From: Candidatus Binatia bacterium
GTDB taxonomy: Bacteria > Desulfobacterota > Binatia > UBA9968
DNA length: 39,837 nt
Assembly: GCA_025924215.1 (NCBI GenBank)
Contig: JAICEJ010000002.1
Span: forward strand, 1-39,837
Direction: 5' to 3'
The translations under genes were made by a program, and so were the position numbers. The stretch's first letter is position 1; the number at the start of each line of letters is the position of its first letter. The notes under the pieces were generated by a model. It saw nothing but the letters and a program-made list of their open reading frames with translations. It had not been told where the DNA came from and did not search any database. Positions 4,590 to 20,097 of the stretch are shown here, in pieces.

Positions 4590-5324
4590 TCAAATCTCCA
4601 CGATCATTCCATCTTCTGCCATCGCGCAGGAAATCTCGGCGCTACGAGCAAGCATGTCGTAGCCCATGTGAGTCAGTATGATTCGAGGGCAGCTCAAACG
4701 TGGCAGCTGTTCTCTCAACTGTAGGTAGCTCATGTGGTTCGAGCTCTCCCGGTCGTAGTAGGTACACTCGCAGACGAAAAGGTCGACGCCGCCGGCGTGC
4801 TTTAGAAATGCATCTGTCCAGGCCGAATCTCCCGAAAACAAAACGTGCTTGCCGTTATAACTAACCTTCAACGCGAGCGATATTTCGTGCACCTGATGCG
4901 GCACGCGGAATGGAAATACCTCAATTCCCTGAATCGTTGAGGTTTTCTCAGGCTCTAAAACGTGGAAGCAGGTACTTGCAAGATCTACGGCCTTGGTGCC
5001 CTTGCCGTACATGAGGTCGAAGACGGCACGAGCTTTTTCTTCTGTTCCCACGGGTCCAGCCACATGCAGCGGCTTTTCGCGGCTGTTCTCATACAAAAAT
5101 TCCATAAAGAAGAAAGGCAAGCCGCCAAAGTGATCGCCATGTAGGTGGCTCAAGAAGATGACATCGAGTCGGCCCGAATCAAATCCGAGCTTCTTCAGCG
5201 CGAGCAAAGAAGTCGCGCCGCAGTCCAGCAAGAACAGGCGGTCCGGGGCCTCGATTAAGTATGCACTTTGATTACGCCCACCACTGCCGAATGCATCACC
5301 ACAGCCCAGTATATAGAGTCTCAT
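4590..5324 (-). CDS. MBL-fold metallo-hydrolase (RNase Z/BN-like)
   Basis: HxHxDH motif (LSHLHGDHFGG). The N-terminus MRLYILGCGDAFGSGGRNQSAYL starts from the ATG at 5324. The tracked ORF extends to 5405, but that extension covers non-coding-looking direct repeats. Confidence 0.85.
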   Translation of the reverse strand: MRLYILGCGDAFGSGGRNQSAYLIEAPDRLFLLDCGATSLLALKKLGFDSGRLDVIFLSHLHGDHFGGLPFFFMEFLYENSREKPLHVAGPVGTEEKARAVFDLMYGKGTKAVDLASTCFHVLEPEKTSTIQGIEVFPFRVPHQVHEISLALKVSYNGKHVLFSGDSAWTDAFLKHAGGVDLFVCECTYYDRESSNHMSYLQLREQLPRLSCPRIILTHMGYDMLARSAEISCAMAEDGMIVEI

Positions 5325-5462: not shown

Positions 5463-5921
5463 GTGCGAGTCGAAAAACGTCCCTTTTTTGCTTCCTACAG
5501 CACGAGTCTCTGGGTGCGGTTTTTAAGGTTTAATCTCTCATCGCATAAAAAGTTGGAATCTGATCTTGGCAAAGTCGGTTTAACACCGCCACAGTTCTAC
5601 GTACTCGCAACCATTGGTTACGCGGGCAGCCTACCATTTGGCGAGATCGGCGCTAAGATGATGGTTACGGTCAGCAATCTTACCGGTATCGTTGACCGGC
5701 TTGAGCAAAAAAAACTCGTCGTAAGGAAGCGCGACTCAACCGACCGCCGTGTTGTTCACGTAACATTGACAGATAAAGGAGCCAACTTATACAAGACCAC
5801 AATTCCTCTCTTTGAGAGAAGTGTCTCTGCAATCTTTTCTTCGCTCGATCTTCCGCATCAGAAAGAACTCTCCGCCTTGCTACGAAAACTGAATCACGGC
5901 GAGCTCGCCATTCTAAGCTAG
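5463..5921 (+). CDS. MarR-family transcriptional regulator
   Basis: Winged-HTH pattern LTPPQFYVLATIG..FGEIGAKMMVTVSNLTGIVDRLEQKKLVVRKRDSTDRRVVHVTLTDKG. The start is uncertain (GTG 5463 or an in-frame GTG at 5514). Confidence 0.85.
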   Translation: MRVEKRPFFASYSTSLWVRFLRFNLSSHKKLESDLGKVGLTPPQFYVLATIGYAGSLPFGEIGAKMMVTVSNLTGIVDRLEQKKLVVRKRDSTDRRVVHVTLTDKGANLYKTTIPLFERSVSAIFSSLDLPHQKELSALLRKLNHGELAILS

Positions 5922-5925
5922 TTTG

Positions 5926-5955
5926 TTGACACGCCAGTTTGTCTGGGGCTATACA
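5926..5955 (+). promoter_or_regulatory. sigma70-like promoter candidate: TTGACA, 18-nt spacer, TATACA
   Basis: A perfect -35 hexamer at 5926-5931 and TATACA at 5950-5955, about 60 nt upstream of the CCG-protein start. GTTTGT occurs twice around the -35 (5921-5926 and 5937-5942). Confidence 0.45.
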
Positions 5956-6014
5956 ATTAATGTCTTAAGATTTCATTTCTTCAAAACAGCTACGGATCTT
6001 ACACGCTTCATACT

Positions 6015-7238
6015 GTGCAAGACGAATCCAAAAAAAACCTCGGCCTAGAGCGGGTCAAAAAATGGCTCTATGCCAAAGATCTAAATGCGCGCAGCAGTGG
6101 CTGTGTTTTATGCGGCTCCTGTTATGGGCACGGCCCGGCCAATCCGATGGAAGACGTTCCCGGGCCTAAACAAAAATGCCCTCCTTATGAATTTTATCGG
6201 TTCCAACGCCACACGCCAAAGTCGCGTTGGCTGATGGCGCAGCGTGTCTTTCACGGGCTTGACCCAATCACGCCCGAACTCAAGGAAATCGTCTACAGTT
6301 GTACAACCTGCCTGATGTGCCAGGAGCTTTGCGGCGTCCGGGCTGACGGTTACGGCCCATGGGATATTACGGTTGCCATGCGCGAGCAGATCACTGAGGA
6401 AGAGGGTCCGATTGCCGCTCATCGCCACCTATACCAGGGTTTGCAGCAACACGATAACCCCTGGTCGCAAACGAGGGCAGAACGCGGCTTTTGGGCAAAC
6501 GGATTGGGGCTGGTTAAAATTGCTGAGCGACATGCCCCGACGGTGTTGTTCGCCGGTTGCTCCGCCGATCAGCCAAGCGGCCGCGCCGGTGCCGTGGCCT
6601 TGGCCAAGCTGATGCAAAAGGCAGGCGAGGACTTTGTTATCCTCGGTGATCAGGAAAAATGCTGCGGGTTGCATGCTTACGATCTCGGATTTCGGCGCGA
6701 GTACGAGCGTCTGCAAAAGGAAAACCTGGACGCAATTACGCAAGGTGGAGTGGGAAGGCTGGTGGTTGCTTGCGGCAGTTGCCGCCGCATTTGGCGCGAG
6801 AATGCCAAAGTTGGTGCCGCCGGTTTGGAAGTCTTGCATGGCGTGGAATATCTCGAAGCCGCTTTACGGACGGGTCACTTGAAAATCACTAAACCGATTC
6901 GAAAAAAAGTTACTTACCACGATTCCTGCCATTTAGGGCGAGGTTGCGGCATATACGAAGCGCCGCGCACCATTTTGCGCTCCATTCCTGGAGTCGAGTT
7001 CGTGGAAATGACACGGAACCAACGTTGGGCATGGTGCTGCGGCGGCGGCGGCGGTGTTCCTGAAGCGGATCCGAACCTCGCTCAATGGAGCGCAACCGAT
7101 CGCATGCGTGAGGCGAAGGAAACCGGCGCCGAACTGGTTTTGACCTCAAGCGCGTTATGCCTGCGCTCATTCAATGCGCTTGAACAGCCTGCTCTGCCGG
7201 CCCAAGATCTGATTGAGTTTGTCGGCCAAGCTGTTTGA
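6015..7238 (+). CDS. (Fe-S)-binding CCG-domain protein (HdrD/GlpC/GlcF-like)
   Basis: Two ferredoxin-type cysteine clusters (CVLCGSC..KCPP and CTTCLMCQELC) and two CCG cysteine-rich domains (KCCGLHAYD and WAWCCGGGGG). Confidence 0.85.
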   Translation: MQDESKKNLGLERVKKWLYAKDLNARSSGCVLCGSCYGHGPANPMEDVPGPKQKCPPYEFYRFQRHTPKSRWLMAQRVFHGLDPITPELKEIVYSCTTCLMCQELCGVRADGYGPWDITVAMREQITEEEGPIAAHRHLYQGLQQHDNPWSQTRAERGFWANGLGLVKIAERHAPTVLFAGCSADQPSGRAGAVALAKLMQKAGEDFVILGDQEKCCGLHAYDLGFRREYERLQKENLDAITQGGVGRLVVACGSCRRIWRENAKVGAAGLEVLHGVEYLEAALRTGHLKITKPIRKKVTYHDSCHLGRGCGIYEAPRTILRSIPGVEFVEMTRNQRWAWCCGGGGGVPEADPNLAQWSATDRMREAKETGAELVLTSSALCLRSFNALEQPALPAQDLIEFVGQAV

Positions 7239-7241
7239 TCG

Positions 7242-7976
7242 ATGCTCAAAGAAGCTCACTTTACACCGCAAAGAATGCTCTCGATGCTCGGGCTGAAGGC
7301 CGATTCTCTCGGTCCGTATGCCTTGATTCCCGGCCCTAAGGATCGGAGCCAATTGCTTTTGAGTATGTTGGATCAACCGCAAAAAAACTTCACGTTCCTG
7401 GATTACGAGATGCACACCGGAACTCTGGACGGAAAGAGAGTAACCGTCGGAAATGGCGGGCGCTACGCTCCGGACACGGCGATTACCACCGAAATTCTTT
7501 GTGGTGCCGGTGCCCAAGCGCTGATCCGCGTCGGAAGTTGCGGCTCGTTGCAGGAGCATGTGAAGATTGGCGATCTGATCATCGTAACCGGAGCGCTGCG
7601 CGGTGAAGGCACATCGTCCTATTACGTGGCAAATAATTTTTCCACCAGGGCTCACCCCGAGATAGTCGATGCATTGAAGCGAGCCGCGGAAAGCCTGCAG
7701 GTGCGGTTCCATCTAGGCTGGATTTTTACCACTGACGCGCTATTCCAGGAAACGCCGGAATTGATCGCGCAACTCACAGAACAAAATGTTTCGAGCATCG
7801 ACATGGTGACCTCGGCTTTTTTAACGATCGCTCAAGTTCGAAAGAAAAAGGCCGGTGCCATTCTTGCCGTCTCGGATGAGTGTTTGCACGGCAAATTCGG
7901 ATTTCGTGACCCTTTGTTTTTCGCAGCCGAAGAGAAAATCATTGCGGTTGCCCGCCAAGCTCTCGAGTACTTTTAG
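7242..7976 (+). CDS. nucleoside phosphorylase, PNP_UDP_1 family (hexameric DeoD/Udp type)
   Basis: Aligns by eye to E. coli DeoD: ALIPGPKDRSQLL vs LMPGDPLRAKYI, HTGTLDGKRVTVGNGG vs FTGTYKGRKISVMGHG, and LIRVGSCGSL vs IIRVGSCGAV. Confidence 0.8.
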   Translation: MLKEAHFTPQRMLSMLGLKADSLGPYALIPGPKDRSQLLLSMLDQPQKNFTFLDYEMHTGTLDGKRVTVGNGGRYAPDTAITTEILCGAGAQALIRVGSCGSLQEHVKIGDLIIVTGALRGEGTSSYYVANNFSTRAHPEIVDALKRAAESLQVRFHLGWIFTTDALFQETPELIAQLTEQNVSSIDMVTSAFLTIAQVRKKKAGAILAVSDECLHGKFGFRDPLFFAAEEKIIAVARQALEYF

Positions 7977-7999
7977 CCTGGTACAACTGCAGATCGTTT

Positions 8000-9505
8000 A
8001 TGAATTCGGTACAAAGCCCGCTTTTTGAGCCGGTACTATGGGAAGGTGGCGGTTTTCGGATTCTCGATGAGATTTCGCTTCCCGAGCAGATCCAATATAT
8101 CAGCGTCAAAGATGCTTCGCAGGCCATTGCTGCGGTACGTGAGATGAAAACGCGTGCCTTTGGTCAAGTCCTTACGTTCCTCTATAGCGGTGCGCTCCTG
8201 GCGCAAAACTATCACGCGAAGGAAATCCCCCCGCTGCGAAAATCGATCGATCAACTGACCCACGAGTTCTGCCGAGCGCGACCGACATTCGATTTCCGCG
8301 GACTGGGTCAATATTTCGACGAGTGGTTTAAAAAGCTGCCGGGAAACGTGAGTGCCGGTGAGTGGATTAGCGAGCGGGCTTGTGATTTCGCCGCGCAGAT
8401 CGTCCGTGCCCGGGGCGCAAGAGCAAAGCGCGCTGCCGAGCTTCTGCCGGACCCAGCGCGGGTTTTGACCCATTGCAACATGAGTGGAGAACTGTTGGCG
8501 ATAGCGCAGCATTGCGCGACGATGAGCAAAGACTTCGCCGTCATCGCGACGGAAACTCGACCGTACCTGCAAGGCGCGAGACTGACCGCTTGGGAGCTCG
8601 CACAAGGAGGCGTTCGCGTATCACTGATTCCCGATTGCGCCATTGCCCAGGTGATGGCTAGAGGCGAAGTCAATGCAGTCGTCGTCGGTTCGGATCGTGC
8701 GGCACAGAATGGCGATATCATCAACAAAATCGGCACTTATCCGCTGGCGGTAATGGCAAAGCGGTACGGAGTTCCATTTCACGTGCTGGTTCAAGACCCA
8801 CGTTCGTTGGTGCAAGGGAGCGATGTGCCGATCGAAGAAAGGCCGGGCGCAGAGCTGCTAAGCTTCCAAGGACGGCAGCTAATAGCCCACGCAAGCGTTG
8901 CGGTCCGCTATCCTGCTTTTGATGTTACGCCGGCCCCATTAATTACGCAGTTTATTGGGTTTGACGGTGTCTACACACCTGAAAGTTTCCGCCGAAAGTA
9001 CCAGCAGCAGAGAGCCCCAGCACCTAGCCCAAGAAAGGATGGAAGCAAGTACCTGCTCGTTTATGGTATCCCGCCTTTAGATCAGCGCGATCACTTAATC
9101 AGTGCGCTGCAAGCTGCGCGAGCCAGCCGTTTCTTGATTCCGGAAATGCGGCCGCATATGTGGGGTGTTCATGCCGTAGCGCCCGCGCTGCTTGAGCACA
9201 ATCTGCCAACGACTCTGATCTCTGACAACATGATAGGATTTTTCTTCGCCCGGGACGAAATCAGTAAGCTCTATCTCTACTATAGCCGGCTCGACCCGCA
9301 GGGAGCCAGCGGTATCTGTGGCTCATTGTTGGCACTTGAATTGGCGCGCGCCCATGGCATACCCGTTGAACTGCTGGCGTCTGATTCGGTTAAGCGATTG
9401 ACTATTGATAGCGATGTCTCGACGTTCATGGGGAGAAATATTTGTCCCAGCGGAGCCTCGATCTTTCCCCTCAAAAGCGAAGTCATACCCCTGGGAGTTG
9501 TTTAA
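8000..9505 (+). CDS. MtnA/eIF-2B-family sugar-1-phosphate isomerase with an extra C-terminal degenerate copy of its Rossmann-like domain
   Basis: The catalytic-region motifs are present: LTHCNMSG (Cys), ETRPYLQGARLTAWEL and VVVGSDRAAQNGDIINKIGTYPLAVMAKRYGVPFHV (Asp). At 501 aa it is longer than the usual ~350, and residues ~350-470 repeat the ETRP..LIxD..GIP pattern. Confidence 0.85.
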   Translation: MNSVQSPLFEPVLWEGGGFRILDEISLPEQIQYISVKDASQAIAAVREMKTRAFGQVLTFLYSGALLAQNYHAKEIPPLRKSIDQLTHEFCRARPTFDFRGLGQYFDEWFKKLPGNVSAGEWISERACDFAAQIVRARGARAKRAAELLPDPARVLTHCNMSGELLAIAQHCATMSKDFAVIATETRPYLQGARLTAWELAQGGVRVSLIPDCAIAQVMARGEVNAVVVGSDRAAQNGDIINKIGTYPLAVMAKRYGVPFHVLVQDPRSLVQGSDVPIEERPGAELLSFQGRQLIAHASVAVRYPAFDVTPAPLITQFIGFDGVYTPESFRRKYQQQRAPAPSPRKDGSKYLLVYGIPPLDQRDHLISALQAARASRFLIPEMRPHMWGVHAVAPALLEHNLPTTLISDNMIGFFFARDEISKLYLYYSRLDPQGASGICGSLLALELARAHGIPVELLASDSVKRLTIDSDVSTFMGRNICPSGASIFPLKSEVIPLGVV

Positions 9506-9522
9506 GTAATTTCGAGGCTAGA

Positions 9523-10527
9523 ATGATGAAGAAGCTTCAAGGAGAGATGATCAAATGGGGCAAGCTGCTGTTTGACCGGCATCTAATCAGCGGTTGGGGC
9601 GGAAATCTCAGTTGTCGGGTTGGAGAGAACGAGTTTTTGATCACGGGGCGGCATGCACCGCTTGGTTTTTTAACAGCGGCAGATTTGGTGCGGATTGATG
9701 GCGCTGGCAGGCCGCTTAACCGAGATCAGCTTGCATCGAGCGAAACGCCTCTGCATTTGGCTCTGTATGCAGCCAGCGGGACACAAGCTATTGTTCATGT
9801 TCATCCACCCATGACTCTGGCATTTTCATTGACTCACGATCATTTCGTTCCGGTGAGTTTTGAGGAGAAGTATACAATTGGCGAAGTTCCGATAGTCGCC
9901 CAGGATACGCCGACGGTAACAAAGCCCGAGAGGTTAGCAGAAGAATTAAAGTACCGTCCGGTCGCCATCATCAAGGGTCATGGCACGGTGGCTATCGGCA
10001 AGAATCTTCAAGAGACCTTTTTGCTTACCGATTTACTGGAAGAAGCTGTGCGTTGCCGTTTCTTCATGGAGCTTCGAAGTGAATCGAAGCTTTCGATTGC
10101 GGATCGGATAACACAACAAAAGGGCCTCGCCGATCCACAAACGGGTGAATCTTATGTGTTGTTCTCGAAAGAGCACATGTCCGCTTTGGTGGAGCGCGCG
10201 AACCATGATTCTCAATTTCGTTCGCACGGGGAAGAGACCGGCCTCTCTACATCCCTGACGCTTTTTCTTGAAGAAAAGGACGTAGCCTGGACCGTGCGTT
10301 TTGACTCCGGCCAGGCCACGCAGCTTGAACGGGGTGATAGCGGTGAGTTTATGATCAGCGGCTCAGAAGAGTGGTGGAGCGCAGTGTTTCGAGCCCGCAT
10401 CGATCCTTTTCTTGCAACCCGGCAGGGCAAATTAAAGCTTAAGCGTGGCGAGCTGGCGCAGCTCGCGCGGTGGTACAAACCCTTCGAGAGGGCCTTTTCG
10501 CTGTGGCAAACGATATTGATTCAGTAG
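9523..10527 (+). CDS. class II aldolase/adducin-family protein (MtnB/FucA/Ald2-like) fused to a C-terminal SCP2 domain
   Basis: Aldolase_II motifs: GWGGNLSCR, SSETPLHLALY, AIVHVHPP and IIKGHGTVAIG. The C-terminal ~95 aa end in RIDPFLATRQGKLKLKRGELAQLARW, which is SCP2-like. ATG at 9523 is preferred; the tracked ORF starts at 9442, inside the upstream gene. Confidence 0.85.
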   Translation: MMKKLQGEMIKWGKLLFDRHLISGWGGNLSCRVGENEFLITGRHAPLGFLTAADLVRIDGAGRPLNRDQLASSETPLHLALYAASGTQAIVHVHPPMTLAFSLTHDHFVPVSFEEKYTIGEVPIVAQDTPTVTKPERLAEELKYRPVAIIKGHGTVAIGKNLQETFLLTDLLEEAVRCRFFMELRSESKLSIADRITQQKGLADPQTGESYVLFSKEHMSALVERANHDSQFRSHGEETGLSTSLTLFLEEKDVAWTVRFDSGQATQLERGDSGEFMISGSEEWWSAVFRARIDPFLATRQGKLKLKRGELAQLARWYKPFERAFSLWQTILIQ

Positions 10528-12068
10528 GATTTTTCGCCGCGGAGCTGCTCGACCAAGCAGCACGAAAGCATCCAAACAAAACCGCGATCATTGACAAGGA
10601 AGAAGAGCTGAGCTTTGCGGTTCTTAACGCGCGGGTGCATGCTCTAGCCGGTCATTTGTGCAGCGAAGGCATCAAACAAAGCGATCGGGTGGGAGTGCTG
10701 TTACCAAATTGCGCGGCAATTCCACTGATTTATTTTGCTAGTCAAAAAATCGGCGCTGTGAGCGTGCTCCTTGATGCCCGATTAAGGGGCAAGGAGCTAC
10801 AGGACGTCTTATGCGATGCGGATCTCAAGCTCCTGGTTGTCCATAAGCAGCTGATCTCCGAAGTGGCCAATGTCGTCGAAGAGCTCACCCCAGTATCAAT
10901 CTGGATCGTCCAAGGAGAGGGCGAACAGTCCTTTGAAAATCGCTACGCGGCACCGTCTAGATCAGCGCTCTCGCCGCAACTGCAGGCTGACGACGAGGCA
11001 CTGATTCTTTATACTTCGGGAACCACGGGCGAACCCAAAGGCGTGGTCCTCAGTTACCGCAATCTGGCGCAGTATCCGCGTGTCATGACCGCGCTGGGCA
11101 TCACTGATTCGAGCACGATCCGAGGCTGCATCCTGCCGATGTCGCACATCGTTGGCCCGTTGGTCTGCAACGAAGTGGCGGATAAAGGATTCACTCTGGT
11201 CATTTTCGATCAAATTAACCCCGTCACCTTGTTGGACGGCATTCAGAAATATCGCATTAGTGTCTTTGAAAGCGTGCCGATTGTTTTTCAACTCCTCCTA
11301 GGGGTGCGCGATCTTTCAAAATATGACACCACGAGCGTGAAGATCGCGGCCATGATGGGGACTACGGTTCCGTTGCCACTTCTGCGCGCATTTCATTCAG
11401 CTCAGCCGCACATCGCACTTATCCAGGGTTATGGCTTGACCGAGACTTCACCGATGATCACCCTGGTTGAACCGGAGCAAGCCGAAGCCAAGTTGGGAAG
11501 TATTGGCCGTGCAGTACCGGGGATCGAAGTAAAAATCGTCGATGAGTCCGGCAGGGAACTGCCCATCGATGAACCGGGAGAAATCATCACGAGTGGTCCC
11601 CATGTGATGAAAGGTTATTTTCGCAAAGCTGAGGCCACGTCAGCGCGCATTCGTAACGGCTGGCTTTACACCGGCGATGTCGGCAAACGGGACTCGGACG
11701 GTTACTTCATCCATCTCGGTCGACTTGACGATATGATCATCACCAGCGGTCTTAACGTGTACCCCGCCGAGGTGGAAAACCTGATCTACAACTTTCCGAA
11801 CGTGCAAGAGACCATCGTCTTTGCCATCCCTGATCTTAAGCGGGGTGAGGTGATCGGTGCCGCGGTAGTGCCGCGGCCAGGCCATGCGATTGCCCCAAAG
11901 GAGTTGATAAGTTTTCTGCGCGCTAATCTGGCAAATTTCAAAGTGCCGCAACAGATTGTCATCCGTGAGTCGCTACCGCGTACCTCTTCAGGGAAAGTCA
12001 TTCGCGACAGCGAGACCTTGCTTTCGGACGGAGGAGCGAGCCCGAGCGTTTCAGTTTGGCGGAAATAA
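10470..12068 (+). CDS. AMP-dependent acyl-CoA synthetase/ligase
   Basis: AMP-binding signature LILYTSGTTGEPKGVVLS, plus GYGLTETS, YTGDVGKRDSDGYFIHLGRLDDMI and a C-terminal SSGKV. The true start may be the GTG at 10503; either start overlaps the aldolase 3' end. Confidence 0.9.
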   Translation: MVQTLREGLFAVANDIDSVGFFAAELLDQAARKHPNKTAIIDKEEELSFAVLNARVHALAGHLCSEGIKQSDRVGVLLPNCAAIPLIYFASQKIGAVSVLLDARLRGKELQDVLCDADLKLLVVHKQLISEVANVVEELTPVSIWIVQGEGEQSFENRYAAPSRSALSPQLQADDEALILYTSGTTGEPKGVVLSYRNLAQYPRVMTALGITDSSTIRGCILPMSHIVGPLVCNEVADKGFTLVIFDQINPVTLLDGIQKYRISVFESVPIVFQLLLGVRDLSKYDTTSVKIAAMMGTTVPLPLLRAFHSAQPHIALIQGYGLTETSPMITLVEPEQAEAKLGSIGRAVPGIEVKIVDESGRELPIDEPGEIITSGPHVMKGYFRKAEATSARIRNGWLYTGDVGKRDSDGYFIHLGRLDDMIITSGLNVYPAEVENLIYNFPNVQETIVFAIPDLKRGEVIGAAVVPRPGHAIAPKELISFLRANLANFKVPQQIVIRESLPRTSSGKVIRDSETLLSDGGASPSVSVWRK

Positions 12069-12098
12069 GGCCCCATTGCATGTAGAGGGCCGATTTTA
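12069..12098 (+). terminator. weak intrinsic-terminator candidate after the ligase gene
   Basis: GGCCC (12069-12073) pairs with GGGCC (12087-12091) and is followed by GATTTTA. The stem is short and the loop long. Confidence 0.3.
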
Positions 12099-12194: not shown

Positions 12195-14876
12195 GTGAGC
12201 GCTAAAATCAAAAATCAATCAAGCAGAAAATCGGCTGGATCAACCGATAGTGCCCGGTCTAAAGATAACTTGCGCAAGATCATCTTGATCGATGGTCATT
12301 CTCTCGCGTTCCGCGCGTTTTTTGCATTGCCCGACACGCTAATCACATCTTCAGGACAGGTGACGAATGCCGTTTATGGCTTCACCTCCATGCTCATAAA
12401 GCTTTTGGCCGACGAGCGGCCGCAAGCTGTGATAGTTTGCTTCGATAAAGGCGCGCCGCAGTTTCGCCTCGATCGTTATGCCGCCTATAAAGCGGGCCGC
12501 GCGGAGACGCCGGATCTTTTCAGGCAGCAGCTGCCGTTGATTCGAGAGGTGCTTCGAGCGTTGCGAATTCCGATTGTCGAGCTCGAAGGCTACGAAGCCG
12601 ATGACCTGTTAGCGACGCTGACCAAGAATTGTCGTGGCGAAGGCTGCGAAGTAATCGTCGTCACCGGTGACCGAGACATTCTCCAGCTTGTAGGCGAAGG
12701 GGTATCGGTGATCATGACTCGCCGCGGAATCTCCGATGTCATCCGCTATGACGCACCTACGGTTGTCGAGCGCTACGGCGTTTCCCCGGATCAATGGCTC
12801 GACTTCGTCGCGCTCAAGGGCGAGCCCTCCGATAATCTTCCTGGTATTCCCGGGGTTGGCGACAAAACCGCGGCTCAGCTGGTCAAGAAGTATGGCGATA
12901 TTGAAGGCATCATCGCGCATGCGGATGAGCTCACACCCAAACTTCGCGATTCCATCAAAGCGCACGCCGAGCAAGTACGGATCAATAAAGAGCTGGGACG
13001 GTTACTCAATGATGTTGGACTCGAACTGGATTCAACCAAACTGTGCCTCGAGCGCTGGGATGATGAAGAAGTTCTAAAGCTCTTTACCTCACTTGAGTTC
13101 CGCAGTTTACACGAACGTTTGAGAGCGTTGAATATGCACGTTTCGGCGCCTCTCGGCGCGGCTCTCGAACCAAAGTCGATCTCGGAATTGAGATCGGCTG
13201 ACGAAATTAAACAAGATGGCGCCGTCGCGTTGGCTTGGAGCGAGAATTGGCTGGCTGTTTGTGATGGGCCTGGCGAGGTGCACACGCTGGGCATGGGCGC
13301 AGCAATGGACCGGCTCGGGGAATTTTTTCAAGATCCTGTGCGGTCGAAAGTGGCTCATGACGCAAAATCCATCTATCGTTTAGCTTTGGCGGCCGGGATC
13401 GAATTTCAGTCATTGTACTGTGACACCAAGATTGCCGCCTATTTACTGGAGCCGGGATCAGCCTCTGGATACACGCTGGCTGACGCGGCAAAACGTTATC
13501 TGGGGATTTTGCTCAACAGCAACGCTCCCGAACTTGCGATCGGCGAACAAAGTACTCTTGCCTTCGGCGCCCCAGAAAAAGAGCGCATCGCTCGTGAAGC
13601 TATGGCCATCCGCGGCATGGTTCCCGTATTGCAACAGCAGCTTAGCGAGCAAGGCATCTGGGAACTTGCCACCACCTTAGAATTCCCGCTAATTTGCGTA
13701 CTGGCCAGAATGGAGCATGATGGCATTCTCATCGACCGCGATTATCTAGAAAAGTTCGATGCCGATCTAGGAAACAAAATAGCCGCGCTTGAACGGGCAA
13801 TCAAAGATCTCGCCGGTGAAGACTTCAAGGTGAACTCGCAGCCACAGCTCCAGCGGATCCTTTTCGAAAAGCTCGCTCTACCCAAGACCAGAAAAATCAA
13901 GACGGGCTACTCCACCGACGCTGCCGAGTTGGAGAAGCTGGCCGAAGTACATTCGATCATTCCGGTCCTACTCGAGTACCGCGAGGTATCGAAACTAAAG
14001 ACCGGGTTTACGGAGATGCTCCTGGAGCTGATTGATAGCAACAGCAATCGGATCCATACCACTTACGAGCAAACGATAGCTGCTACCGGACGGTTGTCGT
14101 CAACCGCGCCCAACATGCAAAACATACCGATACGTGGTGAGCTGGGCCGTCAGATTCGCCGCGCCTTTATTGCACCGCTGGGGCATGTGCTGTTATCAGC
14201 GGATTACTCTCAGATTGAGCTGCGTGTTCTCGCGCATCTGTCGCAAGACGAGACTTTTCTGCAAGCTTTTGCGCAGGGGCATGATTTTCACGCCACCATC
14301 GCTGCGAAAGTCTACGGTGTCGCTTTGGCCGAAGTGACCTCGCAAATGCGCAACCAGGTAAAGCAGTTTTCTTATGGCATCGCCTATGGGATGTCCACTT
14401 TCGGAGTATCGCAACGGCTCGGCGTAGAAATGGATGTGGCAGCGAGTTTTGTAGAAGCTTATTATGCGCAATTTCCTAAAGTGAAGGAGTTTCTAGCCTC
14501 GCAGGTGAACCAAGCTAAGATCGACGGGTTTACGACGACGATGTTTGGCCGCCGTCGCTATTTGCCGGAATTGGGGTCGTCAAACTTCCGGCTGAGAGCG
14601 CTCGGCGAGCGTATGGCGCTCAATACCCCCATACAGGGAAGCGCTGCAGATATCATAAAGAAGGCTATGATCAATGTGGCTGAAGCGTTGCGCAAAGAAC
14701 CGCTTGCAAAGATGCTATTGACTGTGCACGACGAACTCGTCTTCGAGGTTCCTGTCGAGCACCTTGAGCAGGCTCGGGCTTTGATCGAGGAAGCGATGAC
14801 TCAAGCTGCGGATCTTCGCTGCGGCCTTGACGTCGACATCCATGTGGGCCCGAATTGGGCGGAAGCTCACGCTTAA
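12195..14876 (+). CDS. polA: DNA polymerase I
   Basis: 5'-nuclease domain (ILIDGHSLAFRAFFAL, GIPGVGDKTAAQL). Pol motif A LLSADYSQIELRVLAH, motif B RNQVKQFSYGIAYG and motif C TVHDELVFE. Length is 893 aa. Confidence 0.97.
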   Translation: MSAKIKNQSSRKSAGSTDSARSKDNLRKIILIDGHSLAFRAFFALPDTLITSSGQVTNAVYGFTSMLIKLLADERPQAVIVCFDKGAPQFRLDRYAAYKAGRAETPDLFRQQLPLIREVLRALRIPIVELEGYEADDLLATLTKNCRGEGCEVIVVTGDRDILQLVGEGVSVIMTRRGISDVIRYDAPTVVERYGVSPDQWLDFVALKGEPSDNLPGIPGVGDKTAAQLVKKYGDIEGIIAHADELTPKLRDSIKAHAEQVRINKELGRLLNDVGLELDSTKLCLERWDDEEVLKLFTSLEFRSLHERLRALNMHVSAPLGAALEPKSISELRSADEIKQDGAVALAWSENWLAVCDGPGEVHTLGMGAAMDRLGEFFQDPVRSKVAHDAKSIYRLALAAGIEFQSLYCDTKIAAYLLEPGSASGYTLADAAKRYLGILLNSNAPELAIGEQSTLAFGAPEKERIAREAMAIRGMVPVLQQQLSEQGIWELATTLEFPLICVLARMEHDGILIDRDYLEKFDADLGNKIAALERAIKDLAGEDFKVNSQPQLQRILFEKLALPKTRKIKTGYSTDAAELEKLAEVHSIIPVLLEYREVSKLKTGFTEMLLELIDSNSNRIHTTYEQTIAATGRLSSTAPNMQNIPIRGELGRQIRRAFIAPLGHVLLSADYSQIELRVLAHLSQDETFLQAFAQGHDFHATIAAKVYGVALAEVTSQMRNQVKQFSYGIAYGMSTFGVSQRLGVEMDVAASFVEAYYAQFPKVKEFLASQVNQAKIDGFTTTMFGRRRYLPELGSSNFRLRALGERMALNTPIQGSAADIIKKAMINVAEALRKEPLAKMLLTVHDELVFEVPVEHLEQARALIEEAMTQAADLRCGLDVDIHVGPNWAEAHA

Positions 14877-14934
14877 CACGGTGCTGGGGAGTATAACATC
14901 TTCGCTCTGTGAAAAGGGCTGAACTTAGTACTGC

Positions 14935-15723
14935 ATGTCTTTCTCTAAACGTACAGCGCCGCTAGTCCTCGTCATTCTGCTGGTATTACCGGCATGGATC
15001 GGCGCTGCCTTCGGGCAAGCTAATAAAAGCAGACAAACTTCGACCATTCCGCCCGGGCCTGCGCCCGATGCCGAATTGGCGCGACTGCGCGCCGATGTCC
15101 TACAAAAGATGAGAGATTCACGCGCGGGAGCCGAAAAGCTAATTGCATTGCGTGAGGAACAAGCAAAAAAACTCACCGAGGAGTATGGAAAGCGGCGCCA
15201 GTTTTATCATGAAGGGCTAATTTCAAAAGCGGAGCTCGATCAAGCCTTGCGCTCTCTCGAGGAGGCGATAGCTCGCTTGGAAGACGATAAACGCTGGCTT
15301 ACCGATCAAGATATCGCAATTACTGAAGCTTCGATGTTGGGCGAGCAGTTGCAATCGCCTCGCTTAGCGGCGAATGGCTACAGTGATACCGGTTCTCTTA
15401 TTCGCTTCAACGGCGATCGAGTCTGGTTTATCGGTGATGCGCCGAAGATTCAGAATTTCTTTTTTGAAACCTTCGGCCGTGGCTTGCCCGTCAGTGCTCA
15501 TGGTCAAACGGCCATTCATGATCGACTACAGTTCGATCATAGAGATGCGATGGATGTCGCGCTTCATCCTGACAGCCAAGAAGGCCGCTCCTTAATATCC
15601 CATCTACGTCAAAGTCGGATCCCATTTATCGCGTTCAGAAATGCTATCCCCGGCTCATCGACAGGCGCGCACATTCATATCGGCAGACCGTCGCGATCGC
15701 TTCGAACTGTCATGAGGCGGTGA
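14935..15723 (+). CDS. secreted coiled-coil protein with possible LAS/M15-like zinc-hydrolase C-terminal domain
   Basis: Signal peptide (LVLVILLVLPAWIGAAFG) and a charged heptad-like middle section. The C-terminus has FDHRDAMDV followed by STGAHIHIG, which resembles the Hx(n)D...HxH pattern of LAS enzymes. The product call is tentative. Confidence 0.55.
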   Translation: MSFSKRTAPLVLVILLVLPAWIGAAFGQANKSRQTSTIPPGPAPDAELARLRADVLQKMRDSRAGAEKLIALREEQAKKLTEEYGKRRQFYHEGLISKAELDQALRSLEEAIARLEDDKRWLTDQDIAITEASMLGEQLQSPRLAANGYSDTGSLIRFNGDRVWFIGDAPKIQNFFFETFGRGLPVSAHGQTAIHDRLQFDHRDAMDVALHPDSQEGRSLISHLRQSRIPFIAFRNAIPGSSTGAHIHIGRPSRSLRTVMRR

Positions 15724-15794
15724 GAGTTCTTGGACGTCCGGTATAGCCAACTGGAGTAATCGAATAGACTATTGGCCCGTCTGTCAGGAGTTTC

Positions 15795-16514
15795 ATGACC
15801 GAACTTGTGGTTCCCGGAAAAGCTTCAACAGTTATACTGGCAAAACCAGGAGGAGACGGCCGTTTTGAAGTTCTCATGACCCGTCGTTCCCAACATCTTA
15901 AGGTTCTGGCCGGATTTCTGGTGTTTCCAGGCGGAGCCGTGGAAGAAGACGATTGGTCCGATAAAATGTTGGCGCGCTGCCGCGGTTTGTCTCCAACCGA
16001 GGCTCAGCGGATTCTAACGGCAACCATGACTCCGGAACAAGCGATGGGTCATTGGGTGGCAGCAATACGAGAGCTGTTTGAAGAAACTGGAATTCACTTT
16101 TTCGTCAAACAAAGGGACTCGCTTGAGCCAAACTTGGATGGTCTTCGGGACCGTCTGGCGCAAAGTCGTGAGGCACTATGGCGCAGGAGGCTGGCGTTGG
16201 CCGATTTGTTGGAATCCGAGCAACTCTTTTGCGACGTTGGTCGGCTGACTTACCTGTTCCATCGAATTACTCCGAATCATCACCCAGTGCGCTTCGACAC
16301 CCGGTTTTATGTGGGTTCCCTGCCGGAAGGACAAACACCTCTGGACTCGTCCGAGGAAGTGGCCGAGAGCGTTTGGCTCACCCCGCAAGAAGCTTTAAAA
16401 TCATCGGAGTCGGGAGGTCTGCCGATGATGCCTCCGACACTGATCGCTCTGCGATCTCTTGCGGAACTGGGATCCTGGAAAAACTTCATATCTACTTATC
16501 GACTCGATCCATAA
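15795..16514 (+). CDS. NUDIX hydrolase with a split Nudix box
   Basis: FPGGAVEEDD is followed about 35 aa later by AAIRELFEETGI, the second half of the Nudix box. Confidence 0.85.
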   Translation: MTELVVPGKASTVILAKPGGDGRFEVLMTRRSQHLKVLAGFLVFPGGAVEEDDWSDKMLARCRGLSPTEAQRILTATMTPEQAMGHWVAAIRELFEETGIHFFVKQRDSLEPNLDGLRDRLAQSREALWRRRLALADLLESEQLFCDVGRLTYLFHRITPNHHPVRFDTRFYVGSLPEGQTPLDSSEEVAESVWLTPQEALKSSESGGLPMMPPTLIALRSLAELGSWKNFISTYRLDP

Positions 16515-16540
16515 CTGTTCCCATAGTTAGCAGCAGAGAA

Positions 16541-16569
16541 TTGCCGTGATTTGCCGCCCGTGGTATCAT
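16541..16569 (+). promoter_or_regulatory. promoter candidate: TTGCCG, 17-nt spacer, TATCAT with extended -10 (TGGTATCAT)
   Basis: Read directly from the sequence, about 87 nt upstream of the phosphorylase start. TTGCCG is repeated 10 nt downstream (16551-16556). Confidence 0.4.
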
Positions 16570-16655
16570 TTACGGGTAAAAAATGAGCAAACGATTGATT
16601 TCCCCTTGAAGATCATCGAACTCGTATTTAACGCGACAAACGCAAGATTTTACGG

Positions 16656-18383
16656 ATGATGACTGAACCAACTGCTTTTTCTGTTCCGGCGACAATTGCG
16701 TACTTTTCAATGGACGTGGCTATTGATTCGGATATTCCAACCTACAGCGGCGGTCTTGGCATCTTGTCCGGTGATACATTGCGCTCGGCCGCTGATTTGG
16801 GCGTTCCGATGGTCGCCTTCACGCTCCTGCACCGCAAAGGTTATTTTGACCAGCGGCTTGATGCCGTTGGCAATCAATTAGAGAGTCCATCGCAGTGGTC
16901 TCCAGAAAAGTTTCTCGAAGCGTTGCCGCCGCGTGTTTCTGTGACGATTGAAGGCAGGGAAGTAAAAATACGGGCTTGGCAGTATCGCTTCCCTGGCATC
17001 ATGGGCCAAACCGTCCCGTTATTGTTGCTCGATACGGACCTAGAAGAGAACGATTCACGCGATCGAGTTCTGACCGATCATCTCTATGGCGGCGATGATC
17101 GTTACCGTCTTTGTCAGGAGGCGGTTCTAGGATTGGGTGGTGTGCAGATGCTTCGTGCACTAAACTACCCTGGCTTCAAGATCTACCACATGAACGAAGG
17201 ACATTCCGCGTTAGCGACAATCGCTTTATTGGAGCAGCTATCCGCCAATCGTCGCTTCTCTGAGACAGAGATCGAAACGGTGCGCCGCCAGTGTGTTTTT
17301 ACGACTCACACGCCGGTTCCGGCCGGCCATGATCGCTTTCCCGCAGACCTCGTGCATCGGGTGTTAGGTGAGGCTCGCGGAGCGCTCCTGCGTCAGGTGG
17401 GAGTCATGGACGGTTCGCTCAATATGACCGAGCTGGCGCTGCGCTTGTCTGGTTATGTTAATGCCGTATCGATGCGGCATGGCGAGGTCTCCCGCGAGAT
17501 GTTTCCCGGCCATCGTGTCGAGGCTATAACCAACGGCGTTCACGCGGAAGCTTGGATAGCCAAACCGATAGCCACCTTGTTTGACCGGCACATACCCGAT
17601 TGGCGGCGCGACAATTGTTATCTTCGTCATGCGATTGGGTTCCCTTTGCAGCAAGTTCGCGACGCTCACGCCGAAGCCAAGAGGGAACTGTTGCAGCAGG
17701 TGCGCTGGCTGACCGGCAGCCAGCTCGATGAGGCCGTTTTTACCCTAGGTTTTGCGCGACGCGCAACGGCGTACAAGCGCGGTGATCTGCTCTTCACCGA
17801 CTTAGATCGGTTGAAGAATATTGCGCGACAGGTGGGACCGCTTCAGCTGATCTATGCCGGTAAAGCCCACCCCCGTGATGATGGCGGAAAAGCGATCATT
17901 CGTCGGATCTTTGAAGCAGCGGCAGCTCTGGCCAATGATGTCCGGGTCGTGTATCTGGAAAACTACGATATGGCCCTCGGCAAAATGATTTGTGCGGGCG
18001 TCGATGTTTGGCTGAATACTCCGCTGCGGCCTCAGGAAGCCTCCGGTACCAGCGGCATGAAAGCTGCGTTGAATGGCGTCCCCAGCTTGAGTGTTTTAGA
18101 TGGGTGGTGGATTGAGGGCCACATAGAGGGAGTGACCGGGTGGTCAATCGGCGGATTGGGCTCCGGCGATGGCGATACCAATACTGAGGTAAATTCTCTT
18201 TACTACAAATTGGGAGAAGTAATTCTACCTCTTTATTACAACGCTCCTGATAAATTTGCTCATGTCATGCGCTCGGCAGTTGCCTTCAATGGTTCGTTTT
18301 TCAACACGCAACGAATGATGTTTCAGTATCTCAGAAATGCTTACCTACCGGCTTGGACCAATGCCCAAGCATCATTACTCTAA
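16656..18383 (+). CDS. glgP: alpha-glucan phosphorylase (GT35, short form)
   Basis: N-terminus YFSMDVAIDSDIPTYSGGLGILSGDTLRSAADLG. PLP-lysine region EASGTSGMKAALNGV. Length is 575 aa. Confidence 0.9.
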   Translation: MMTEPTAFSVPATIAYFSMDVAIDSDIPTYSGGLGILSGDTLRSAADLGVPMVAFTLLHRKGYFDQRLDAVGNQLESPSQWSPEKFLEALPPRVSVTIEGREVKIRAWQYRFPGIMGQTVPLLLLDTDLEENDSRDRVLTDHLYGGDDRYRLCQEAVLGLGGVQMLRALNYPGFKIYHMNEGHSALATIALLEQLSANRRFSETEIETVRRQCVFTTHTPVPAGHDRFPADLVHRVLGEARGALLRQVGVMDGSLNMTELALRLSGYVNAVSMRHGEVSREMFPGHRVEAITNGVHAEAWIAKPIATLFDRHIPDWRRDNCYLRHAIGFPLQQVRDAHAEAKRELLQQVRWLTGSQLDEAVFTLGFARRATAYKRGDLLFTDLDRLKNIARQVGPLQLIYAGKAHPRDDGGKAIIRRIFEAAAALANDVRVVYLENYDMALGKMICAGVDVWLNTPLRPQEASGTSGMKAALNGVPSLSVLDGWWIEGHIEGVTGWSIGGLGSGDGDTNTEVNSLYYKLGEVILPLYYNAPDKFAHVMRSAVAFNGSFFNTQRMMFQYLRNAYLPAWTNAQASLL

Positions 18384-19875: not shown

Positions 19876-20057
19876 CGCAAATTCCTCCTTCGAAAATGGC
19901 ATAATGCGCGACTCTGGGCATCTAGTTAAACACAAACCGCAAATTTTACCATTCGTCAATTTCCGCCCATCCGCCGAGGCGGGCTCAGTGTATCCGGGAT
20001 CGGTTAGTTAAGCGTGCCGCCGTAGGTGCAAGCCGGCCCATGGCCGCTGGGATATTC

Positions 20058-20086
20058 TTTTCAAGCTTGGGTAAGTTTGGTATCAT
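20058..20086 (+). promoter_or_regulatory. promoter candidate: TTTTCA, 17-nt spacer, TATCAT with extended -10 (TGGTATCAT)
   Basis: Read directly from the sequence. The -10 ends 11 nt before the ATG at 20098, which implies a very short leader. Confidence 0.4.
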
Positions 20087-20097
20087 CAGTGCTTAGA

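Follow-up and report, generated by a model that had tools for sequence, protein, structure and literature searches.

A conserved five-gene operon in Candidatus Binatia

The window analysed here, the whole stretch of 39,837 nucleotides at positions 1 to 39,837 of a Candidatus Binatia contig, contains a five-gene operon in which a nucleoside phosphorylase (PNP), an MtnA-like isomerase and an aldolase of class II stand between an iron-sulfur protein of the CCG type and an AMP-forming ligase. Judged from the proteins that it encodes, the operon is most likely an uncharacterised variant of the dihydroxyacetone phosphate (DHAP) shunt. The gene list was drawn from a listing of open reading frames (ORFs) and from profile scans with Pfam and NCBIfam, and the features concerned are the following.

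4590 to 5324, minus strand: metallo-beta-lactamase-fold (MBL) hydrolase (Pfam Lactamase_B_2 61 bits, Lactamase_B 59 bits)
5463 to 5921, plus strand: MarR-family regulator (Pfam MarR 59 bits)
5926 to 5955, plus strand: sigma-70-type promoter, TTGACA-18 nt-TATACA (sequence reading and conservation in the spacer between the MarR and CCG genes)
6015 to 7238, plus strand: HdrD/GlpC/TfrB-like CCG iron-sulfur protein (Pfam CCG 106 bits in two stretches, Fer4_8 28 bits)
7242 to 7976, plus strand: DeoD/Udp-fold nucleoside phosphorylase, PNP (PNP_UDP_1 115 bits)
8000 to 9505, plus strand: MtnA-like isomerase of 501 amino acids (Pfam IF-2B 195 bits and a second weak stretch)
8000 to 9004, plus strand: N-module of the isomerase, residues 1-335, a full MtnA-like aldose-ketose isomerase
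9035 to 9505, plus strand: C-module of the isomerase, residues ~346-501 (IF-2B 24.7 bits when the tail is scanned alone)
9523 to 10527, plus strand: class II aldolase with an SCP2-like tail from about 10200 (Aldolase_II 125 bits)
10470 to 12068, plus strand: AMP-forming acyl-CoA ligase (AMP-binding 280 bits, AMP-binding_C 62 bits)

The ORF listing agrees with an earlier note on this DNA, which had described five co-directional genes with gaps of 3, 23 and 17 nucleotides and an overlap between the aldolase and ligase genes. The operon lies, as also stated there, directly 3' of the MarR gene. Profile searches recovered each of the predicted gene families, SCP2 being borderline in the window protein. 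The longest ORF of the aldolase/SCP2 gene begins at 9442, and the ATG at 9523 is backed by the orthologues; the longest ORF of the ligase begins at 10470, and orthologue gene calls point to a start at about 10503, which overlaps the aldolase stop.

The proposed promoter is present at 5926-5955 and its motif recurs in related loci, TTGACA-N16-18-TATA[AC]A being found in the same MarR-CCG spacer of 29 of 58 Binatia-type loci. Since this element is kept while the remainder of the spacer has diverged, its presence is more than chance, and we take the promoter upstream of the CCG gene as real. A generic promoter scanner passed over it, owing to the final A of its second hexamer. The terminator hairpin that had been placed at 12069-12098 was dropped, as it has a stem of 5-6 bp and a loop of 10-13 nucleotides and folds no better than shuffled sequence (minimum free energy -13.5 kcal/mol, z -0.16). 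An Rfam scan of the whole window gave no RNA family, hence no riboswitch or leader. A perfect 12-nucleotide palindrome, GGCGAGCTCGCC, lies at 5898-5909, within the 3'-terminal part of the MarR gene and just upstream of the promoter; a scanner reported it, too, as a minus-strand stem resembling a terminator. Besides this palindrome, a search for inverted repeats between 5400 and 6020 that could serve as a MarR operator found nothing convincing in the promoter.

The module in Binatia-type loci and in Omnitrophota

When species-representative genomes were scanned, 208 of them proved to encode a relative; 80 loci were retrieved and a panel was compared by tblastn. The closest named homologues of the isomerase come from Candidatus Binatia. 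Three long contigs with 62-77% identity repeat the order of a divergent MBL gene followed by MarR, CCG, PNP, isomerase, aldolase and ligase genes, one of them with different outer flanks. In the tblastn panel this seven-gene arrangement occurs in every sufficiently long Binatia-type locus, at isomerase identities of 52-96%, and it is repeated in metagenome contigs (L137-L167). The PNP gene adjoins the isomerase gene in 79 of the 80 Binatia-type loci. The five-gene operon is real and conserved.

The complete Binatia-type arrangement, with 53-62% isomerase identity, was also seen in metagenome-assembled genomes labelled Limnocylindrales, Chloroflexota, Udaeobacter, Verrucomicrobiia, Acidiferrales and Syntrophobacter (e.g. 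L011, L030, L036, L053, L057 and L061); these hosts likely reflect errors of binning or labelling, recent transfer being possible. In the 77%-identical contig L001 the genes for the CCG protein (6119-7300), the ligase (10504-12070) and polA (12197-14789) were each fragmented by the gene caller; frameshifts introduced by long-read assembly are the most likely cause of these splits, more so than pseudogenisation.

Two lineages from another phylum carry a related module. The first, here called Omnitrophota-2, comprises 19 loci labelled Omnitrophota or 'Planctomycetales', and counts refer to the 17 loci of 9 kb or more. The second, Omnitrophota-3, is a larger lineage found in the metagenome scan, for which neighbours were counted on 27 loci and adjacency of the PNP gene on 37. 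Identity of the core between Binatia and both lineages is about 32-47%; for Omnitrophota-2 it amounts to 32-44% for the isomerase, 41-47% for PNP, 31-41% for the aldolase, 31-41% for its SCP2 tail and 32-39% for the AMP-forming ligase. The order in Omnitrophota-2 is ligase, PNP, isomerase and aldolase/SCP2, then an aldehyde dehydrogenase, with a PadR regulator upstream. In Omnitrophota-3 a B12-binding radical S-adenosylmethionine (SAM) gene is followed by PNP, isomerase (N- and C-modules), aldolase/SCP2 and aldehyde dehydrogenase. The PNP gene adjoins the isomerase gene in 17/17 Omnitrophota-2 and 26/37 Omnitrophota-3 loci, and the radical SAM gene directly adjoins the module in 10/17 and 25/27 loci, respectively. 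Radical SAM enzymes of the B12-binding type release 5'-deoxyadenosine at each turnover.

The co-occurrence that the earlier note had proposed to examine is thus borne out: the trio stands together in about 80 Binatia-type loci and in the two Omnitrophota lineages, with its order rearranged, the aldolase/SCP2 gene following the isomerase in all lineages. The invariant core consists of the isomerase with its extra half-domain and the SCP2-aldolase, PNP being nearly always present. Aldehyde dehydrogenase and radical SAM enzyme are typical of Omnitrophota, the CCG, MarR and MBL genes of Binatia, and a ligase is found in both. No CCG, MarR or MBL gene was found in the Omnitrophota loci of the tblastn panel and the metagenomes.

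Lipid-related genes surround many of the Omnitrophota modules. Downstream of the Omnitrophota-2 cluster there are usually a B12-binding radical SAM gene (BchE/HpnJ-like), a PanE/ApbA-like reductase, two ketoacyl synthases (KAS), an acyl carrier protein (ACP) and a cyclase. We did not adopt the KAS and ApbA neighbours as members of the pathway, the KAS proteins being 71-75% identical where the isomerases share about 40%. Omnitrophota-3 modules have surroundings of two forms. One comprises a sterol-sensing-domain MMPL transporter, two LolA-like proteins, DUF1302, a DUF374 acyltransferase-like protein and two AMP-forming ligases; the other has KAS-KAS-(ACP)-cyclase-START-like polyketide cyclase-short-chain dehydrogenase (SDR) upstream. 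The MMPL/LolA/DUF1302-type set flanks the module in 11-12 of the 27 loci, DUF374 in 2 only, and looks like a set for lipid export to the outer membrane; we found no paper describing a cluster of this kind. Both contexts are more suggestive than the KAS and ApbA genes of Omnitrophota-2, yet circumstantial. L108 is an example, its module being bordered at 5481-7805 and 13770-17698 by an MMPL/RND transporter with a sterol-sensing domain, a pair of LolA-like/DUF1329 proteins, DUF1302 and an acyltransferase-like protein of DUF374.

Other variations were noted in Omnitrophota-3. A gene of the class IV aminotransferase fold (Aminotran_4) occupies the PNP slot upstream of the isomerase in L168 (9180-9995), L109, L115, L119 and L124, and an Amidohydro_2 gene lies between the radical SAM gene and the PNP slot in 13 of 27 loci, which suggests that these genes may provide an alternative entry into the pathway. 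In L168, from the complete Omnitrophota genome CP070797.1, positions 1-630 hold part of a gene, running off the locus, for a protein of 1165 amino acids with AFOR_N, AFOR_C and ApbA/PanE domains. It opens a cluster of KAS-KAS-ACP-cyclase, radical SAM, isomerase, aldolase and aldehyde dehydrogenase genes with others interspersed, so that another aldehyde-oxidising enzyme is encoded nearby.

A divergent phosphorylase

The phosphorylase had been assigned to the DeoD/Udp type with an altered region GNGGRYAPDT, and both points hold. The PNP_UDP_1 match is accompanied by best structures of the hexameric fold, namely a uridine phosphorylase (4lnh, 88 bits) and the hexameric methylthioadenosine phosphorylase (MTAP) of S. 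solfataricus (1jds, 80 bits), and the altered region is present and conserved in both phyla as GNGGR[YF][AS][PA]D[TS]. PNP remains below every NCBIfam equivalog cutoff. Features common to both phyla are PGPxxR, IRVGSCG and the Asp of (A)VSD, the last of which we take to be the purine-protonating residue by analogy with E. coli PNP; novel motifs conserved in both are GNGGR[YF] and TDA[LI]x[QR]ET. The family also keeps the N-terminal His that in E. coli PNP makes contact with the 5'-OH. PNP is probably a divergent phosphorylase of the hexameric type (DeoD/Udp fold), specific for purines. As a candidate for the hopanoid enzyme HpnG it was rejected, the HpnG model TIGR03468 giving 29 bits for the window protein and 54 bits for that of L074 against a cutoff of 187.

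An MtnA-like isomerase with a non-catalytic half-domain

Alignment of the N-module to the MtnA structures 1t9k and 4ldq indicates that the catalytic Cys159 (LTHCN) and Asp232 (GSDR) are kept, and both residues are invariant in the two phyla. In NCBIfam the isomerase reaches 243 bits on the MtnA subfamily model (cutoff 271) and 220 on the MtnA equivalog (cutoff 279), and passes the cutoff of the eIF-2B_rel subfamily (199 vs 186 bits); on the model of ribose-1,5-bisphosphate (R15P) isomerase it scores 126 bits against a cutoff of 314. Its AlphaFold (AF2) model has a pLDDT of 80.8 and a pTM of 0.83, with 83-91 pLDDT for the C-module, and in Foldseek it retrieved MtnA structures first (TM 0.75-0.80), R15P isomerase giving 0.61-0.76. 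Thus, placed against R15P isomerase, the protein groups with MtnA by profile score (243 vs 126 bits) and by fold. It departs from canonical MtnA in its sub-equivalog scores, an N-terminal motif MKTRAFGQ and a shortened loop after the catalytic Cys.

The C-module matches Pfam IF-2B over profile positions 123-211 of 280, and hhalign aligned it with the Rossmann half of the N-module with a probability of 93.7% (E 1.8e-7). In this alignment EMRP corresponds to ETRP and ISDNM to IPDCA, a Ser stands at the position of the catalytic Asp, and no Cys strand is aligned. The C-module is therefore predicted to be a paralogue of the isomerase's own Rossmann half that has lost catalytic function. The earlier note had spoken of a dead extra copy of the domain; the catalytic residues are indeed gone, but the module is not a decaying duplicate. 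It is well conserved and carries invariant motifs, and its homologue is encoded by a separate ORF of 141-191 amino acids in every Omnitrophota-2 locus that reaches far enough. Because the half-domain is a separate gene in Omnitrophota, the Binatia isomerase would be a gene fusion, and the C-module seems better described as a dedicated non-catalytic partner subunit, fused in Binatia. Only 117 representative clusters were found among 1.84 billion proteins, so the family is a rare one, and most of its members stand free, with 145-170 amino acids. The regulatory subunits alpha, beta and delta of eIF2B offer a likeness, being IF-2B-fold members that lack catalytic residues and act as partner subunits, as we suppose for the C-module; unlike them, the C-module comprises the Rossmann half only (~150 amino acids), and it appears dedicated to a metabolic isomerase, fused or free.

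A class II aldolase fused to an SCP2-like tail

The Glu/His/His/His metal and catalytic site of the aldolase (SSE, HvH, GHG) is conserved in both phyla. Aldolase models outscore those of MtnB dehydratase, epimerase and decarboxylase on the window protein, which reaches 136 bits on PRK08660 'aldolase' (cutoff 203) and 55 bits on MtnB dehydratase (cutoff 137). Characterised DrdA (6btd) gives 30 bits; the ribulose-1-phosphate (Ru1P) aldolase model gives 51 bits (cutoff 300), and the haloarchaeal family of this enzyme matches weakly (51-58 bits). The aldolase domain, which is of the short form, precedes the SCP2-like tail. The fusion to SCP2 had been predicted for the window protein, where it scores 21.1 bits, just below the cutoff of 21.3, and it is clear in orthologues, with 31 and 41 bits (E 2.5e-10). 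The tail is alignable across phyla, and the fusion occurs in every lineage; by its profile matches, the tail would adopt an SCP2-like lipid/acyl-binding fold.

Taken together, the Cys159/Asp232 pair, the grouping of the isomerase with MtnA and the metal site of the aldolase support the proposal that phosphorylase, isomerase and aldolase follow the logic of the DHAP shunt.

The ligase and the step from aldehyde to acid

On the NCBIfam model PRK06187 (ttLC-FACS/AlkK-like) the ligase scores 423 bits, and its counterpart in L074 459 bits, against a cutoff of 476; its best PDB matches are a feruloyl-/fatty-acyl-CoA synthetase (263 bits) and FadD13 (226 bits). By our reading of the sequence against established Acs biochemistry, it carries a Gly (GYGLTET) where acetyl-CoA synthetase has the Trp that restricts it to acetate. 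The ligase is predicted to be an AMP-forming enzyme of the medium/long-chain fatty-acyl-CoA synthetase (FACS)-like group that forms an acyl-CoA. An AMP-forming ligase of the same subfamily adjoins the module in 16/17 Omnitrophota-2 and 11/27 Omnitrophota-3 loci. For the ligases of the two phyla, common subfamily and adjacency are what the profiles and gene orders suggest, and we claim no more.

The earlier note had suggested that the product of the aldolase is carried on to a CoA thioester. Independent support for this comes from Omnitrophota, where a non-acylating aldehyde dehydrogenase directly follows the aldolase in 17/17 Omnitrophota-2 and 23/27 Omnitrophota-3 loci and would supply the missing step, from aldehyde to acid, between the aldolase and the AMP-forming ligase; this dehydrogenase is not part of the Binatia operon. 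It is of a generic type (Aldedh 580-592 bits, under all equivalog cutoffs). The same note had named both the CCG protein and the ligase as additions to the described variants. A ligase gene of this type is found in both phyla, although part of Omnitrophota-3 lacks it; the CCG protein, because it is found in Binatia only, falls outside the general pathway.

A proposed route and its substrate

We consider it reasonably likely that the operon encodes an extended route of the DHAP-shunt type, under the control of MarR, that converts a 5'-modified purine nucleoside to DHAP and an acyl-CoA. From the gene content and its conservation, the catalytic residues and the promoter, we infer the substrate and each of the chemical steps as follows. 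PNP would strip the base from a 5'-modified (5'-deoxy-type) purine nucleoside to give a 5-substituted ribose-1-phosphate, which the MtnA-like N-module, with the dead half-domain as its built-in partner subunit, would convert to the 5-substituted ribulose-1-phosphate. The class II aldolase would cleave the latter to DHAP and an aldehyde bearing the 5' substituent, the hydrophobic part of which would be held by SCP2. The aldehyde would then be oxidised to the acid, by the clustered aldehyde dehydrogenase in Omnitrophota and by an enzyme that must be encoded elsewhere, or replaced, in Binatia. Finally, the ligase would turn the acid into an acyl-CoA.

As to the nature of the 5' substituent, we lean slightly towards a bulky or hydrophobic group rather than plain 5'-deoxyadenosine or methylthioadenosine (MTA), because of the universal fusion to SCP2, the FACS-like ligase that is not of the acetate type and the lipid genes beside Omnitrophota modules (KAS-KAS-ACP-cyclase-START-SDR, sterol-sensing MMPL, LolA-like, DUF1302), and also because of the extra isomerase subunit, the MarR/PadR regulators, the core enzymes scoring below cutoff and the rarity of the family. 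On the other side, the adjacent radical SAM enzyme is neither HpnH- nor MqnE-like, and the Binatia operon has no lipid genes.

Several observations weigh against the extended route. PNP has DMV, with a Val, for the Glu of EME, and lacks the Arg that contacts phosphate from the neighbouring subunit; by analogy with E. coli PNP we take the Glu to bind ribose and the Arg to make that phosphate contact, and PNP may not be a standard phosphorylase. In Omnitrophota-3 its gene is absent from 6/37 loci and replaced by the aminotransferase-fold gene in 5/37. In Binatia, no aldehyde dehydrogenase was found among the scanned ORFs of the window (39.8 kb) or within 10 kb in 66 loci. The ligase was not found within reach in several Omnitrophota-3 loci, and its orthology between the phyla could not be demonstrated, since at 33% identity and 278 bits the two are no closer to each other than to unrelated characterised ligases. 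The KAS genes, 65-75% identical between loci, may represent housekeeping (FabF) synteny, so that the lipid context would in part be plain synteny. Finally, a lineage with a fused isomerase (P0184/P0238) stands alone beside a Usp gene, without other genes of the module; as a clue to the substrate this orphan was uninformative.

Alternative explanations

The same core could serve the plain salvage of by-products, i.e. act as a DHAP shunt for 5'-deoxyadenosine and/or MTA from radical SAM and polyamine enzymes. DHAP would be formed with acetaldehyde or 2-(methylthio)acetaldehyde, the latter two proceeding via acetate or methylthioacetate to the CoA ester, and SCP2 and the dead half-domain would be structural extras. 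The logic of such a pathway is established (PMC6079011, PMC10986504), and the B12-binding radical SAM gene and the aldehyde dehydrogenase adjoining the Omnitrophota modules fit it well, as do the purine-type Asp of PNP and the presence of the S. solfataricus hexameric MTAP among its best structural relatives. We nevertheless find this explanation somewhat unlikely. It leaves a lipid-binding fold fused to the aldolase in every lineage, and a ligase that resembles FACS and not acetyl-CoA synthetase. PNP, isomerase and aldolase all fall below the equivalog cutoffs, DrdA reaching only the 30 bits mentioned above, and the module family is rare, whereas 5'-deoxyadenosine is universal. Furthermore, the regulators are of the MarR and PadR families and not of the DeoR type, as is MtnR of E. 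coli (PMC12632272).

A more specific form of the extended route, which we consider doubtful, would use the 5'-deoxyadenosyl of SAM as a two-carbon donor, a radical SAM enzyme linking it to a lipid or polyketide intermediate. The adenosylation would be HpnH-like and, in Omnitrophota, be performed by the adjacent B12-binding enzyme. Next, the ribose would be excised as DHAP through the joint work of PNP, the isomerase plus dead partner and the SCP2-aldolase, leaving R-CH2-CHO, which aldehyde dehydrogenase and ligase would convert to an acyl thioester for extension by KAS/ACP and export of the MMPL/LolA type. In Binatia, the same enzymes, controlled by MarR and accompanied by the CCG redox protein, would catabolise or salvage adenosylated lipids.

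It is improbable that the genes lie side by side but share no pathway, the trio being a DHAP shunt and the CCG, ligase and MBL genes unrelated and merely syntenic in Binatia. The restriction of CCG, MarR and MBL genes to Binatia would agree with this, as would a ligase whose orthology across phyla is not demonstrable and which several Omnitrophota-3 loci lack. Yet the genes are spaced by 3, 23 and 17 nucleotides and then overlap, behind one conserved promoter, and their order in Binatia is invariant over 52-96% isomerase identity despite changing flanks. A ligase of the same subfamily recurs at a different position in Omnitrophota-2 and adjacent to the module in Omnitrophota-3 (in the numbers of loci given above), and the aldehyde dehydrogenase of the sister lineages links aldolase to ligase chemically.

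Least probable of all is ordinary nucleoside catabolism, in which adenosine, inosine or guanosine would yield ribose-1-phosphate, ribulose-1-phosphate and then DHAP and glycolaldehyde, followed by glycolate or glycolyl-CoA with the GlcF/GlpC-like CCG protein serving a glycolate-type oxidation: the conserved 5'-OH-contacting His of PNP, the weak similarity of the CCG protein to GlcF (33 bits) and GlpC (50 bits) and the weak match of the aldolase to the haloarchaeal Ru1P family are compatible with it, but the isomerase is of the MtnA and not the R15P-isomerase type, the cluster has no ribose-1-phosphate kinase or phosphatase, the Ru1P aldolase score is far from its cutoff (51 vs 300), the CCG protein lacks a flavoprotein partner and does not occur in the Omnitrophota loci, and SCP2 and the FACS-like ligase are left unexplained.

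Relation to known systems

The DHAP shunt is known in forms that combine MtnP, or MtnN and MtnK, with MtnA and Ald2, and as DrdK/DrdI/DrdA, and the published clusters include variants initiated by a phosphorylase (PMC6079011). The module matches them in logic and in folds, with a predicted step of base removal or phosphorylation, an MtnA-family Cys/Asp isomerase and a class II metal aldolase, predicted to give DHAP and an aldehyde, encoded in one operon; the operon contains no kinase gene. It differs in that its phosphorylase has the hexameric DeoD/Udp fold and not that of trimeric MTAP, its isomerase comes with an obligatory dead half-domain and its aldolase is fused to SCP2. It also adds an aldehyde dehydrogenase (Omnitrophota) and/or an AMP-forming ligase, uses MarR/PadR regulators and has all three core enzymes below curated equivalog cutoffs. 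Canonical methionine salvage was rejected: MtnB reaches 55 vs 137 bits, and neither the operon nor the scanned ORFs of the window include a gene of the MtnC/W/X or MtnD type. The non-carboxylating pentose bisphosphate pathway was rejected as well, on the scores of R15P isomerase (126 vs 314) and Ru1P aldolase (51 vs 300) and with no kinase in the cluster.

The fluorometabolite pathway of S. cattleya reportedly proceeds through the 5'-fluoro-5'-deoxyadenosine phosphorylase FlB, an isomerase, a fuculose-type aldolase and a fluoroacetaldehyde dehydrogenase to fluoroacetate. To our knowledge, it is the only full series of PNP, MtnA-like isomerase, class II aldolase and aldehyde dehydrogenase that gives a free acid, and this is the series found in the Omnitrophota module. 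It has no SCP2, dead isomerase subunit or ligase, and the scanned neighbours of the module include neither a fluorinase nor a chlorinase (SAM hydroxide adenosyltransferase fold). PMC6079011 cites the first three of its steps.

A precedent for lipid-substituted adenosines is HpnH, which joins 5'-deoxyadenosyl to a lipid from which the PNP homologue HpnG then removes adenine (PMC13459092). In HpnH/HpnG and in MqnE/MqnB a radical SAM enzyme adenosylates a lipid or aromatic olefin and an enzyme of the PNP superfamily removes adenine, which in principle leaves a 5-substituted ribose-1-phosphate, and in the Omnitrophota module a radical SAM gene likewise adjoins PNP. In contrast, the PNP of the module is not HpnG, its radical SAM enzyme is BchE/HpnJ-like and not HpnH or MqnE, and those pathways have no known isomerase or aldolase step. 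Squalene-hopene cyclase (shc), hpnH and mqn genes were not seen among the annotated neighbours.

In our literature search we met with no account of a DHAP shunt that goes on by oxidation or to CoA, of an aldolase fused to SCP2, of a dead isomerase partner or of such a module in Binatia or Omnitrophota, and the extended form appears to be undescribed. Known DHAP shunts end at a reactive aldehyde; the route proposed here would, if true, be the first version to reach an acid and a CoA thioester. To a well-studied enzyme trio it would also add new protein features, namely a dead IF-2B half-domain partner, a class II aldolase joined to SCP2 and PNPs of a subfamily whose sugar/phosphate site is rewired. 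Few pathways have been assigned in Binatia and Omnitrophota, uncultured lineages that are abundant in soil and sediment, and Omnitrophota genomes of 1.3-1.5 Mb still retain the module beside lipid genes. Should the substrate be an adenosylated lipid, the module would show how 5-substituted ribose intermediates are processed and offer a new way to build or degrade lipid carboxylates.

Companions in Binatia and other genes of the window

The CCG protein is an accessory specific to Binatia. It has two [4Fe-4S] motifs of the CxxCxxCxxxC type and two CCG domains, with the full cysteine complement of HdrD. NCBIfam scores are 142 bits for TfrB (cutoff 385), 50 for GlpC and 33 for GlcF, and the best PDB match is 9ojn, an 'iron-sulfur-binding reductase' of 1042 amino acids (91 bits), followed by HdrB (24 bits). 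It resembles HdrD, GlpC, GlcF, TfrB and EtfD in having a ferredoxin-like N-terminus with two [4Fe-4S] clusters followed by two CCG domains, and differs from them in the lack of a gene for a redox partner, in curated scores that are all far below cutoff and in its confinement to Binatia. Neither the operon nor the approximately 80 Binatia-type loci encode a flavoprotein, cytochrome b or electron-transfer flavoprotein (ETF) partner for it.

The MarR gene lies immediately upstream of the CCG gene throughout the Binatia-type loci, PadR taking its place in Omnitrophota-2. The MBL gene is transcribed divergently from MarR and stays beside it where the outer flanks differ (e.g. in L002). The hydrolase reaches 103 bits on RNase Z and 81 bits on cyclic-nucleotide-degrading phosphodiesterase, both far below the cutoffs, and is best viewed as a putative short protein of the RNase Z/cyclic-nucleotide phosphodiesterase type that accompanies the operon specifically in Binatia.

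The flanks of the operon are of a housekeeping nature: holA, a PLD-like gene, a D-Ala-D-Ala carboxypeptidase with a SPOR domain, polA, NUDIX, MltG/YceG and MoxR genes. Three plus-strand ORFs, at 21789-23165 (458 amino acids), 14935-15723 (262) and 20026-20667 (213), match no Pfam family, and one on the minus strand at 24237-25145 (302 amino acids) matches no NCBIfam family. A 2-dehydropantoate 2-reductase (PanE/ApbA) is encoded on the minus strand at 25149-26078 (227 bits, above cutoff), at a distance of 13 kb to the operon. The Omnitrophota module, too, has an ApbA-like gene beside it, for instance at 14297-15292 in L074; its recurrence in the window and in Omnitrophota loci is probably a coincidence.

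A chlorohydrolase-family amidohydrolase is encoded on the plus strand at 31941-33401 (PRK06151 446 bits, cutoff 416) and shares its superfamily with the deaminases of 5'-deoxyadenosine and of MTA/S-adenosylhomocysteine. It is followed, at 33718-34428 on the same strand, by a stand-alone protein of the class II aldolase/adducin family (236 amino acids, below all cutoffs). By family membership, the two may form a second pair related to 5'-deoxynucleosides, about 20 kb from the operon.

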